Shown in pieces: positions 16,637-22,740 of a DNA stretch of 64,000 nt. Each line of letters begins with the position of its first letter. Position 1 is the first letter of the stretch. Where the stretch lies: assembly GCF_054482595.1 (NCBI RefSeq), contig NZ_CM137008.1; one strand, written 5' to 3'. The translations under genes and the position numbers were made by a program. The notes beneath the pieces were generated by a model. It was not told where the DNA came from. It ran no database searches and saw nothing but the letters and a program-made list of their open reading frames with translations.

Positions 16637-17062
16637 ATGGCAATGCATCTTAACGAAAACCTCGACGATAACGGCGAAATGCATGATATCAACGTGACGC
16701 CGTTTATCGACGTGATGTTGGTTCTGCTGATTATCTTTATGGTGGCGGCACCGTTAGCGACGGTAGATGTGAAGGTGAACTTGCCTGCTTCTACCAGCAC
16801 GCCGCAGCCGCGCCCGGAAAAACCGGTTTATCTGTCGGTGAAGGCAGACAACTCGATGTTTATCGGTAACGATCCGGTCACCGATGAAACAATGATTACG
16901 GCGTTGAATGCGTTAACCGAAGGCAAGAAAGACACCACCATCTTCTTCCGAGCGGATAAAACCGTCGATTACGAGACGTTGATGAAGGTAATGGATACGC
17001 TGCATCAGGCGGGTTACCTGAAGATAGGTCTGGTCGGCGAAGAAACCGCCAAAGCGAAGTAA
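16637..17062 (+). CDS. exbD: TonB-system energizer ExbD
   Basis: 141 aa; single N-terminal TM plus periplasmic domain; immediately follows exbB. Confidence 0.95.
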   Translation: MAMHLNENLDDNGEMHDINVTPFIDVMLVLLIIFMVAAPLATVDVKVNLPASTSTPQPRPEKPVYLSVKADNSMFIGNDPVTDETMITALNALTEGKKDTTIFFRADKTVDYETLMKVMDTLHQAGYLKIGLVGEETAKAK

Positions 17063-17065
17063 AGT

Positions 17066-17290
17066 AGAATTGCCTGATGCGCTACGCTCATCAGGCCTAC
17101 AATATCTATTGCAACATGTTGAATCTTCGTGCGTTTGTAGGCCGGATAAGGCGTTCACGCCGCATCCGGCATTAGGTGCTCAATGCCTGATGCGCTACGC
17201 TTATCAGGCCTATAAAATCTATTGCAACATGTTGAATCTTCATGCGTTTGTAGGCGGATAAGGCGTTTTCGCCACATCAGGTAAGAGTGA
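17066..17290. repeat. REP/BIME palindromic array (two copies of a unit of about 108 bp, each with two REP palindromes)
   Basis: gcctgatgcgctacgctcatcaggcctac at about 17070 repeated at about 17178; gccggataaggcgtt...gccgcatccggca REP palindromes. Confidence 0.85.
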
Positions 17291-18942: not shown

Positions 18943-19983
18943 TCATTTATCGGACGACGCCTGCCACAGATTCAGCTCGCCATCGGCGATATGCTGATCA
19001 ATCTGCGCCAGCTCCTCGGTGCTAAATGTCAGATTATTCAGCGCCTGCACGTTCTCCTCAAGTTGCTCCGCGCGGCTGGCACCAATCAATACCGACGTCA
19101 CGCGATCATCTTTCAGCAACCAGCTTAACGCCATTTGCGCCATTGATTGTCCACGCTGCTGTGCCATTTCATTCAATAAGCGCAGGCTGTTGAGGTTGGC
19201 TTCGGTGAGCATTTTCGGCGTCAGGCCACGAACTTTATTCCCTTCACGATGCATCCGTGAATCTTCAGGAATGCCGTTGAGATATTTTCCGGTCAGCAAT
19301 CCCTGAGCCAGAGGAGTAAAGGCAATACAGCCCACGCCGTTATTTTGCAGGGTATCCAGCAGGCCGCTTTTATCCACCCAGCGGTTCAGTAAATTGTACG
19401 AAGGTTGATGAATTAACAGCGGAATTTTCCACTCGTGCAGCAACTCGACCATTTTTTGCGTCCGCTCTGGCGAGTAAGAGGAGATCCCGACATACAGCGC
19501 CTTACCGCTTTGTACCGCATGAGCCAGCGCAGAGGCGGTTTCTTCCATCGGCGTATTTTCATCGACGCGATGAGAGTAAAAGATATCGACATACTCAAGC
19601 CCCATACGCTTCAGGCTTTGGTCGAGGCTGGCGAGCAGGTATTTACGTGAACCGCCAGAGCCGTACGGGCCGGGCCACATATCGTAGCCAGCCTTGGTAG
19701 AGATAATCAGTTCATCGCGATAAGCGGCAAAATCCTCCCGCAGCAGGCGACCAAAGTTCTCTTCTGCGCTTCCTGGAGGTGGCCCGTAATTGTTGGCTAA
19801 ATCAAAGTGCGTAATGCCCAAATCAAACGCTTTACGCAGGATCGCACGCTGTGATTCCAGCGCGTTAACGTGACCGAAATTGTGCCATAAACCGAGCGAT
19901 AACGCGGGCAGGCGTAAACCGCTTTTTCCGCAATAGCGGTATTGCATCTGCCCGTAACGTTCGGGATTCGCTAACCAGACCAT
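18943..19983 (-). CDS. yghZ: L-glyceraldehyde-3-phosphate reductase (aldo-keto reductase)
   Basis: 346 aa AKR family. Confidence 0.9.
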   Translation of the reverse strand: MVWLANPERYGQMQYRYCGKSGLRLPALSLGLWHNFGHVNALESQRAILRKAFDLGITHFDLANNYGPPPGSAEENFGRLLREDFAAYRDELIISTKAGYDMWPGPYGSGGSRKYLLASLDQSLKRMGLEYVDIFYSHRVDENTPMEETASALAHAVQSGKALYVGISSYSPERTQKMVELLHEWKIPLLIHQPSYNLLNRWVDKSGLLDTLQNNGVGCIAFTPLAQGLLTGKYLNGIPEDSRMHREGNKVRGLTPKMLTEANLNSLRLLNEMAQQRGQSMAQMALSWLLKDDRVTSVLIGASRAEQLEENVQALNNLTFSTEELAQIDQHIADGELNLWQASSDK

Positions 19984-20139
19984 GACCTCTCCTTTCCACC
20001 GTTCAATTTCGAAACAATGTTTCTAGTTTAGCGATTCGCCAGCGCGTATCCCGTAGTCTGGCTCACAGAGTGACGAAAAACTGGGCAAAAACACGCGCTT
20101 ATGCTTTGCTTAAAAAAACACCAATTGAGGAGTGCAACG

Positions 20140-21027
20140 ATGCCGCGTTTAACCGCCAAAGATTTCCCACAAGAGTTGCTGGATTACTACGACTATTACG
20201 CTCACGGGAAAATCTCGAAACGTGAGTTCCTCAACCTTGCGGCGAAGTATGCGGTGGGCGGGATGACGGCATTAGCGTTGTTTGATTTGCTCAAGCCAAA
20301 TTATGCGCTGGCGACTCAGGTAGAGTTTACCGACCCGGAGATTGTTGCTGAGTACATCACGTATCCTTCGCCAAATGGTCACGGCGAGGTACGGGGTTAT
20401 CTGGTGAAACCCGCAAAAATGAGCGGCAAAACGCCAGCCGTGGTAGTGGTGCATGAGAATCGTGGACTGAATCCGTATATCGAAGATGTGGCACGGCGAG
20501 TGGCGAAGGCGGGGTATATCGCCCTGGCACCTGACGGCTTAAGTTCCGTTGGAGGTTATCCGGGAAATGATGATAAAGGTCGTGAGCTGCAACAGCAGGT
20601 TGATCCAACCAAACTGATGAATGATTTCTTTGCCGCAATTGAGTTTATGCAACGCTATCCGCAAGCGGCAGGCAAAGTGGGTATTACCGGATTTTGCTAT
20701 GGCGGTGGCGTATCGAACGCGGCGGCTGTCGCGTATCCGGAACTGGCCTGCGCGGTGCCGTTTTATGGTCGTCAGGCACCCACTGCCGATGTGGCGAAGA
20801 TTGAAGCGCCTTTACTACTCCACTTCGCGGAACTGGACACCCGAATCAACGAGGGCTGGCCTGCTTACGAGGCGGCGTTGAAAGCCAATAATAAGGTTTA
20901 TGAGGCGTATATCTATCCGGGGGTTAATCACGGATTCCATAATGATTCCACGCCCCGTTATGACAAATCTGCCGCCGATCTTGCCTGGCAAAGGACACTG
21001 AAATGGTTCGATAAATATCTCTCCTGA
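20140..21027 (+). CDS. yghX: Dienelactone-hydrolase-family protein, intact here (a pseudogene in K-12, from memory); likely start at the Met of MPRLTAKDF, preceded by a GAGGAG Shine-Dalgarno
   Basis: alpha/beta-hydrolase nucleophile elbow GFCYGG; uninterrupted 295-codon frame. Confidence 0.8.
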   Translation: MPRLTAKDFPQELLDYYDYYAHGKISKREFLNLAAKYAVGGMTALALFDLLKPNYALATQVEFTDPEIVAEYITYPSPNGHGEVRGYLVKPAKMSGKTPAVVVVHENRGLNPYIEDVARRVAKAGYIALAPDGLSSVGGYPGNDDKGRELQQQVDPTKLMNDFFAAIEFMQRYPQAAGKVGITGFCYGGGVSNAAAVAYPELACAVPFYGRQAPTADVAKIEAPLLLHFAELDTRINEGWPAYEAALKANNKVYEAYIYPGVNHGFHNDSTPRYDKSAADLAWQRTLKWFDKYLS

Positions 21028-21145
21028 TAGGTTTATCTCTTACTGGATTACGTCTTAAACAAGCATGAAAAAATAGCGTGCGCAAAAGTCGTTCTTTGCC
21101 TAAAATATCGCTATATATGGCGATATATAACGAATGAGGTGAACG

Positions 21146-21433
21146 ATGAATAACCATTTTGGTAAAGGCTTAATGGCGGGATTAAAAGCAACGCATGCCG
21201 ACAGTGCGGTTAATGTGACAAAATTCTGTGCCGATTATAAACGCGGTTTTGTATTAGGCTACTCACACCGGATGTACGAAAAGACCGGAGATCGCCAGCT
21301 TAGCGCCTGGGAAGCGGGTATTCTGACGCGCCGCTATGGACTGGATAAAGAGATGGTAATGGATTTCTTTCGTGAGAATAATTCCTGTTCTACGTTGCGC
21401 TTTTTTATGGCCGGTTATCGCCTCGAAAATTGA
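21146..21433 (+). CDS. yghW: Small protein of unknown function YghW (DUF2623)
   Basis: 95 aa ORF immediately upstream of the hyb operon, conserved position. Confidence 0.75.
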
Positions 21434-21621
21434 TCAAACATACGTATTATCTTGCTTTAATTAATTACACTAATGCTTCTTCCCTTCGTTTTAGCGCCCC
21501 GCCGCAGTATCATGATATCGATAACCATAATAAATGTGTGGTAAATGGCGCATCGATCGCATTATTGATTTTGCGATTGAGGCAAAATATATGCCAGGTC
21601 TTCGCAACGGAATAACTATAA

Positions 21622-22740
21622 ATGACTGGAGATAACACCCTCATCCATTCTCACGGCATTAACCGTCGTGATTTCATGAAGCTTTGTGCAGCATTAGCCG
21701 CCACCATGGGGTTAAGTAGCAAAGCCGCTGCAGAGATGGCCGAATCGGTTACTAACCCGCAGCGTCCGCCAGTTATCTGGATTGGCGCGCAGGAGTGCAC
21801 CGGTTGTACGGAATCTCTGCTTCGTGCAACGCATCCAACGGTAGAAAACCTCGTGCTGGAGACTATCTCTCTGGAGTATCACGAAGTGCTTTCCGCCGCC
21901 TTCGGTCATCAGGTCGAAGAGAACAAACATAACGCACTTGAGAAGTACAAAGGGCAGTATGTGTTGGTTGTGGATGGTTCCATCCCATTAAAAGATAACG
22001 GTATTTATTGCATGGTTGCTGGTGAGCCGATTGTGGATCACATCCGCAAAGCGGCAGAAGGCGCAGCAGCGATTATCGCTATCGGTTCCTGCTCTGCGTG
22101 GGGCGGTGTTGCCGCAGCTGGAGTTAACCCAACTGGCGCAGTCAGCCTGCAAGAAGTTCTGCCAGGCAAAACCGTTATCAATATTCCGGGCTGCCCGCCG
22201 AACCCGCACAACTTCCTCGCGACCGTTGCGCACATCATCACTTACGGCAAACCGCCGAAACTGGATGACAAAAATCGTCCGACCTTCGCCTATGGCCGTC
22301 TGATTCACGAACACTGCGAACGTCGCCCGCACTTCGATGCTGGTCGTTTTGCCAAAGAGTTCGGTGATGAAGGCCACCGTGAAGGCTGGTGCCTGTACCA
22401 CCTCGGCTGTAAAGGGCCAGAAACTTACGGCAACTGCTCAACGCTGCAATTCTGCGATGTTGGCGGCGTGTGGCCGGTAGCGATTGGTCACCCATGCTAT
22501 GGCTGTAACGAAGAAGGTATCGGCTTCCATAAAGGCATCCATCAGCTTGCCAACGTCGAAAATCAGACTCCGCGTTCACAGAAACCGGATGTTAACGCTA
22601 AAGAGGGCGGCAACGTCTCTGCAGGCGCTATTGGTTTGCTCGGCGGTGTGGTTGGGCTGGTTGCCGGTGTCAGCGTGATGGCGGTGCGTGAACTGGGTCG
22701 TCAGCAAAAGAAAGATAACGCTGACTCACGGGGAGAATAA
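21622..22740 (+). CDS. hybO: Hydrogenase 2 small subunit (Tat signal)
   Basis: 372 aa; Tat motif RRDFMK; [NiFe]-hydrogenase small-subunit Cys clusters. Confidence 0.95.

Follow-up and report, generated by a model that had tools for sequence, protein, structure and literature searches.

Whether yghX is an intact gene in the DNA analysed here, and what its product would do if so, is the question raised by this locus, as the K-12 reference sequence NC_000913.3 annotates yghX (b4658) as a pseudogene with a 47-aa gene, yqhI (b4755), laid over its 5' end. The window, that is, the whole stretch under analysis, comprises 64,000 nucleotides of contig NZ_CM137008.1 (NCBI RefSeq assembly GCF_054482595.1). 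We are highly confident that the yghX of the window is an intact gene for a cysteine hydrolase of the dienelactone hydrolase (DLH) family, and that the K-12 allele was broken by two deletions. Part of this picture is already known: the pseudogene status in K-12 stands in the reference annotation, and the intact gene has an NCBI family model and a crystal structure. To this, the present analysis adds where exactly the lesions lie and how frequent they are in sequenced E. coli, an allele intermediate between the two states, the relationship of YqhI to YghX, and a Tat-like (KR) signal.

In the window, yghX occupies one unbroken plus-strand frame of 295 codons followed by TGA (Table 1). The uninterrupted frame and the GAGGAG Shine-Dalgarno sequence of the original prediction were both borne out by reading the sequence. 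The frame contains no indel and no internal stop, and thus lacks the disruption relative to intact orthologues that defines a pseudogene. It reads as a real gene rather than a chance open reading frame because it matches both PF01738 and NF041440, because the locus was found in 5425 of 5426 complete E. coli genomes with a 1088-bp query (window 20040-21127), and because RefSeq annotates yghX at the same coordinates, as seen in a strain that is 100% identical over that query. Among the full-length matches listed, identity ranged from 95.6 to 100%. The gene order exbD, yghA, yqhA, gpr (yghZ), yghX, yghW, hybO-hybA-hybB is identical in K-12, and a 22-kb stretch around yghX is 100% identical in many field isolates of human, poultry, pig and river-water origin.

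Table 1 Features of the yghX locus (window coordinates)
Feature	Position	Strand	Basis
Shine-Dalgarno sequence GAGGAG	20127..20132	+	7 nt before ATG 20140; read from sequence
yghX coding sequence, intact, 295 aa + TGA	20140..21027	+	ORF, NF041440, PF01738; RefSeq same span
N-terminal 58 aa, predicted export signal: n-region LLDYYDYYAH, Tat-like motif, h-region, A-L-A before Thr59	20140..20313	+	PF23678, column counts
S-K-R-E-F-L, aa 26-31, KR variant of S/T-R-R-x-F-L	20215..20232	+	Homologue counts
Tyr37 codon TAT, intact here; site of the K-12 2-bp deletion (TA or AT)	20248..20250	+	Alignment to NC_000913.3
Glu106 in HENRG motif (ClcD Glu36, active site)	20455..20457	+	HMMER alignment to 4u2c
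Thr157 codon ACC, intact here; site of the K-12 1-bp deletion (one C of 20609-20610)	20608..20610	+	Alignment to NC_000913.3
Nucleophile elbow G-F-C-Y-G-G, aa 184-189	20689..20706	+	Alignment; Cys186 codon 20695-20697 = ClcD nucleophile position 123
Asp233, triad acid (ClcD Asp171)	20836..20838	+	Alignment; invariant in 33 homologues
His264, triad base (ClcD His202)	20929..20931	+	Alignment; nearly invariant in 33 homologues

Several other candidates at the locus were rejected. An upstream ATG at 20101, which would give a 308-aa frame, was discarded as the start of yghX, given that the family model, the homologues, RefSeq and the tagged YqhI of K-12 all start at the equivalent of 20140. Antisense and other-frame ORFs inside the gene, such as the 93-aa frame at 20357-20638 on the minus strand, are mechanical and have no support. 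A preprint uses the name yghX for an antisense gene overlapping modA; this is another locus or another usage of the name, and is irrelevant to the gene described here. A scan of 19900-21650 for promoters and terminators found sites no more frequently than in shuffled sequence, and none usefully placed for yghX. Elsewhere in the region, the exbD-yghA intergenic stretch holds overlapping mechanical ORFs at 16913-17158 (minus strand) and 17070-17261 (plus strand). Strain 503025 (NZ_CP025892.1), which is 100% identical over the 1088-bp query, carries an IS1A between yghW and hybO; the window has no such element at the equivalent position, around 21500-21560. One of the approximately 6100 places matching the query is plasmid-borne rather than chromosomal.

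The original prediction had described the K-12 copy as a frameshifted pseudogene and proposed an alignment to locate the frameshift. The description was correct, in agreement with the b4658 annotation and with the RefSeq label "frameshifted" on the copy of K-12 ER2796, and the alignment located two lesions rather than one. Globally aligned, window positions 20040-21127 and K-12 differ by 15 substitutions and two gaps. K-12 yghX lies at the same locus with the same neighbours (gpr, yghX, yghW and hybO), and its frame is broken at codons 37 and 157. The net loss is 3 nt, with 885 of the 888 nt retained. Instead of an identical intact frame, K-12 has one that is correct up to Lys36, shifts, and stops after 11 foreign residues, for a total of 47. 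Between the two lesions, residues 38-156 remain encoded in an open +1 frame, and from residue 158 to 295 the reading returns to frame 0. The K-12 inactivation reads as recent because only nine substitutions separate its coding region from that of the window, eight of which are synonymous.

The assignment of yghX to the dienelactone hydrolase family, also proposed originally, held. The protein scored 585.3 bits against NCBIfam NF041440, "YghX family hydrolase" (cut-off 460; residues 3-294 on profile positions 1-292), and matched the Pfam DLH model PF01738 with an E-value of 5e-48 and 164 bits, against a gathering threshold of 21 (residues 84-294 on profile positions 1-217). Residues 1-36 matched a separate model, PF23678 "YqhI-like", with an E-value of 1.5e-21. 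The predicted alpha/beta-hydrolase nucleophile motif GFCYGG was found, with a cysteine as the nucleophile and not the usual serine. YghX thus has the Cys-His-Asp triad, with the cysteine in a G-x-C-x-G elbow, by which DLH membership is defined. An alpha/beta-hydrolase fold is indicated by the near-identity of its sequence to the solved structure 4ZV9 (E-value 1e-160), which is treated in the literature as a DLH-fold enzyme.

Equivalences to ClcD were taken from an HMMER alignment to the ClcD variant 4u2c, with numbering as in 1DIN. In addition to the residues listed in Table 1, Arg148 aligns with the active-site Arg81 of ClcD, and Asn268 lies opposite Arg206, which is not conserved. In one alignment of 33 full-length homologues, down to 36% identity, D132, G184, G189 and D233 are invariant and C186, H264, H105 and G109 almost invariant; E106 and R148 are likewise invariant or close to it. 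Thousands of proteins belong to the YghX family, and the catalytic residues are conserved among them. YghX would thus be the 295-aa precursor of an alpha/beta hydrolase that uses a Cys186-His264-Asp233 triad. By analogy with the mechanism of the family, the Cys186 thiolate would attack the carbonyl of an ester or lactone, and water would then hydrolyse the resulting thioester acyl-enzyme.

The closest solved structure, 4ZV9, was determined at 2.0 Å for a protein of E. coli O157:H7 Sakai described as uncharacterised, and represents the same gene. It covers residues 60-295 at approximately 99% identity and, within the crystallised part, differs from the YghX of the window only at V69F, S135N and A177T, which are also differences of the O157:H7 allele sampled here. 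Under the name EcoDLH, the purified protein showed no detectable phosphotriesterase activity, the hydrolysis of paraoxon and of FDDEP being undetectable, and its active-site cysteine was modified or oxidised in the crystal (bioRxiv 10.1101/2025.10.30.685675). The next-closest solved structure is KpDLH of Klebsiella pneumoniae (3F67), a putative dienelactone hydrolase of 241 aa that matched with an E-value of 7e-24. It has the same GFCxGG elbow but aligns only to residues 82-293 of YghX, and has no counterpart of the N-terminal region. ClcD of Pseudomonas knackmussii (1DIN, 4U2B-G; EC 3.1.1.45) belongs to the same Pfam family, and the equivalents of its triad, Glu36 and Arg81 are kept in YghX; the match is distant, however (E-value about 1e-14), and ClcD has no N-terminal extension or signal. 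Arg206 of ClcD is a substrate-binding residue, and YghX has an asparagine in its place. Because E. coli is not known to have a chlorocatechol pathway, the substrate of YghX is probably different from that of ClcD.

Neighbouring genes were too weak a guide for assigning a substrate. The neighbourhoods of three distant YghX homologues showed no conserved context. Some of the neighbours of the distant homologues are GFA, old-yellow-enzyme or glyoxalase genes, which loosely echo the aldehyde reductases gpr and yghA beside E. coli yghX.

The N-terminal region sets YghX apart from both ClcD and KpDLH. Residues 1-58 read MPRLTAKDFPQELLDYYDYYAHGKI-SKREFL-NLAAKYAVGGMTALALFDLLKPNYALA, followed by TQ. 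The n-region pattern L-x-D-x-Y-D-x-Y-x-H, upstream of the RR or KR motif, is strongly conserved across the family. The motif is followed by a mildly hydrophobic h-region (residues 33-51; Kyte-Doolittle maximum 1.55), then by K52 and by A56-L57-A58, which together give the layout of a Tat signal. In the columns of the 33 homologues, arginine occupies position 27 in 28 and position 28 in 30, F30 is present in 28, A56 in 20 and A58 in 24. The motif was also found in 69 of the best 150 representatives of 50%-identity clusters, 52 of them with RR and 11 with KR. The TAT_signal_seq model TIGR01409 was weakly matched by seven of the 33 homologues, whereas the YghX of the window matched neither TIGR01409 nor PF10518.

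Natural KR-type Tat substrates exist, and YghX shares with such signal peptides the S-K-R-E-F-L motif, the mild h-region, the basic residue and the A-x-A. It differs from Tat signals in the extra, unusually conserved n-region of about 24 aa (Pfam "YqhI-like") that precedes the motif. Because S-K-R-E-F-L departs from the strict consensus S/T-R-R-x-F-L-K, we call YghX Tat-like rather than listing it among proven Tat substrates. We conclude that the YghX family carries a Tat-type signal, with a KR variant in the enterobacterial branch, and we infer export, cleavage and Tat dependence from it. Tat-dependent export of YghX to the periplasm is somewhat favoured on these grounds. The signal would be cut at A-L-A, releasing a mature enzyme that starts at about residue 59-60 and is most likely periplasmic. 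By title and abstract, the papers found on dienelactone hydrolase together with the twin-arginine pathway seem to be genome or transcriptome surveys, and none seems to deal with export of the YghX family.

The N-terminus may instead stay on the protein as a membrane anchor, in the manner of Rieske proteins, whose signals are not cleaved, or form a cytoplasmic domain, which would leave YghX at the membrane or in the cytoplasm. This is possible but the less probable reading. It would account for the KR in place of RR in E. coli, for the lack of a match between the E. coli sequence itself and the Tat-signal models, and for an h-region that is only mildly hydrophobic. The Rieske Tat-signal model PF10399 also matched four of the 33 homologues, weakly, and the near-invariance of residues 1-24 from one enterobacterial genus to another is more than a signal peptide usually shows and goes beyond the needs of targeting. 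It is opposed by the complete Tat layout, in which a basic pair, x-F-L, a mild h-region, K52 and A-x-A follow one another, by the presence of RR in most relatives, and by alanine being the majority residue at both positions 56 and 58. The crystallised structural-genomics construct also lacks the N-terminal 59 residues: the 4ZV9 chain starts with two unaligned residues, then has an alanine opposite Thr59, and its native sequence appears to start at Gln60. Cleavage and export to the periplasm are therefore retained as the preferred reading.

The same N-terminal region connects YghX with YqhI. YqhI has been detected in K-12 by chromosomal epitope tagging, and its published sequence is MPRLTAKDFPQELLDYYDYYAHGKISKREFLNLAAKCGRRDDGISVV. 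It consists of residues 1-36 of YghX followed by the 11 frameshift residues CGRRDDGISVV, an exact match to the product predicted from the shifted frame. The shared part corresponds to window positions 20140-20247, and yqhI lies at 3147597-3147740 in NC_000913.3. By this comparison of sequences, YqhI is the N-terminal stub of the broken hydrolase gene. The match of the tagged protein to the predicted frameshift product confirms that the promoter and the ATG equivalent to 20140 are used. The promoter and start codon have stayed active after the frameshift, so that such strains make only the 47-aa stub.

The expression of YqhI rises under low Mg2+, and the deletion of yqhI causes a growth defect at low Mg2+ that is not complemented by the peptide; the recent study of YqhI at low Mg2+ makes no mention of yghX. 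We consider it rather unlikely that the first 36 or so residues serve for more than targeting, either as an n-region on which a chaperone or proofreading factor docks or as a peptide in its own right, and that YqhI has a residual or new function. If this were true, the frameshift of the K-12 lineage would have left exactly the "YqhI-like" module expressed, and not an inert stub.

The distribution of the two lesions was determined with 44-nt queries centred on each K-12 junction, for which the 28-nt seed of megablast is impossible on the other allele. The K-12-type 2-bp junction was found in 1251 of the 5426 complete E. coli genomes and the 1-bp junction in 1199, counts that are confined to these two lesions; the difference of 52 is a net figure only. 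The undeleted allele of the window was found at the first site in 3631 of the 5426 genomes, while about 540 genomes with nearby SNPs were matched by neither query for that site, as an exact 28-nt seed is needed. The broken allele is present in about 22-23% of complete E. coli genomes and is not specific to K-12. Of 40 evenly sampled genomes with the 2-bp deletion, at least 25 belong not to laboratory derivatives but to isolates of human, pig, dog, poultry, civet, river or wastewater origin, and the allele of the clinical isolate M217 is exactly that of K-12.

A river isolate, AVS0575 (NZ_CP124483.1 803504-804389), lacks the 2 bp but not the 1 bp, and shares the SNP background of the K-12 allele. 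This apparent intermediate suggests that the 2-bp deletion came first and the 1-bp deletion second. In K-12 and a large natural sublineage of E. coli, yghX would accordingly have been killed in two steps, at codon 37 and then at codon 157. A different kind of loss is seen in IAL7255 (NZ_CM130730.1), where only the last 96 or so nt of yghX are left, abutting a defective IS1 and lying beside mdtM and yjiA, which suggests a rearrangement or deletion mediated by IS1.

Intact 888-nt copies are carried by BL21, strain C, an O157:H7 strain and two more divergent strains (97.1 and 95.7% identity). The same allele, with six substitutions, three of which are synonymous, is found in BL21 and strain C, and in the intact strains that differ most, 8/11, 20/26 and 35/41 of the substitutions are synonymous. 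The prevalence of synonymous changes (8/9 in K-12, 35/41 in one divergent strain) indicates that yghX is under purifying selection. All five of these strains and K-12 have threonine at codon 177 (20668-20670), where the window has alanine; Ala177 is probably a derived change of the window lineage.

Beyond E. coli, orthologues of 294-298 aa with 85-92% identity were found in genomes named as Citrobacter koseri, Pseudescherichia vulneris, Enterobacter, Kosakonia and Leclercia. In each, the sequence runs colinear with the YghX of the window through both lesion sites, with Tyr37 and Pro156-x-Lys158 invariant. Because other enterobacterial genera carry such colinear orthologues, the intact form is read as ancestral. 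The original prediction that this strain retains ancestral content lost in K-12 stood with regard to the ancestral form, but not with regard to content, as K-12 lost 3 nt and no gene content.

It could be argued that E. coli can do without yghX and is losing it throughout the species, and that the copy of the window is open merely because too little time has passed, while being unselected or unexpressed. A broken copy is indeed tolerated by about a fifth of the genomes, in one genome nothing but the remnant beside IS1 is left, and the protein has no attributable phenotype, as the defect of the yqhI deletion is not complemented. We nevertheless regard this as very unlikely: synonymous changes dominate even in the divergent strain, full-length orthologues persist across genera, thousands of family members keep the catalytic residues, and translation from this promoter and start site has been demonstrated in K-12. 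A functional gene under selection remains the preferred reading for the copy of the window.

Another proposal concerns the reaction. A review cites a structure-prediction study that named ysgA, ycjY and yghX as candidates on the basis of a GXCXG motif, and YghX would accordingly be a polymerase of short-chain poly-3-hydroxybutyrate (cPHB) rather than a hydrolase. NCBIfam models of PHA depolymerases also gave weak matches (E-value 3e-05), far below their cut-off. The proposal draws only on the motif and on fold resemblance, whereas the best full-length matches of YghX are to the DLH family, with the equivalents of the ClcD triad, Glu36 and Arg81 conserved. The cPHB polymerase activity actually traced in E. 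coli was assigned to YdcS, and K-12 makes cPHB without a functional YghX. A polymerase is thus an extremely improbable identity for YghX, and a DLH-family hydrolase remains the assignment adopted here.

Finally, the idea that sequencing error or mutation in the laboratory produced the K-12 "pseudogene" found no support and can be practically dismissed, as identical deletions occur in MG1655, ER2796, DH1 and MC4100 derivatives and in more than 1000 assemblies, some of them of human, pig, dog, poultry, civet and river isolates, and as the frameshift-encoded C-terminus of YqhI has been epitope-tagged and detected.

The practical value of finding yghX intact is small; the finding is real, correctly interpreted and ordinary. 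The K-12 yghX locus is already in use by metabolic engineers as a neutral pseudogene integration site, and this assumption of neutrality fails to carry over to strains with an intact gene. YghX is absent from K-12, but the gene is intact in BL21, strain C, O157:H7 and most wild isolates. YqhI is to be read as a stub of yghX, which may explain why its deletion phenotype is not complemented by the peptide. With a solved structure and a probable periplasmic location, YghX is a tractable orphan enzyme.
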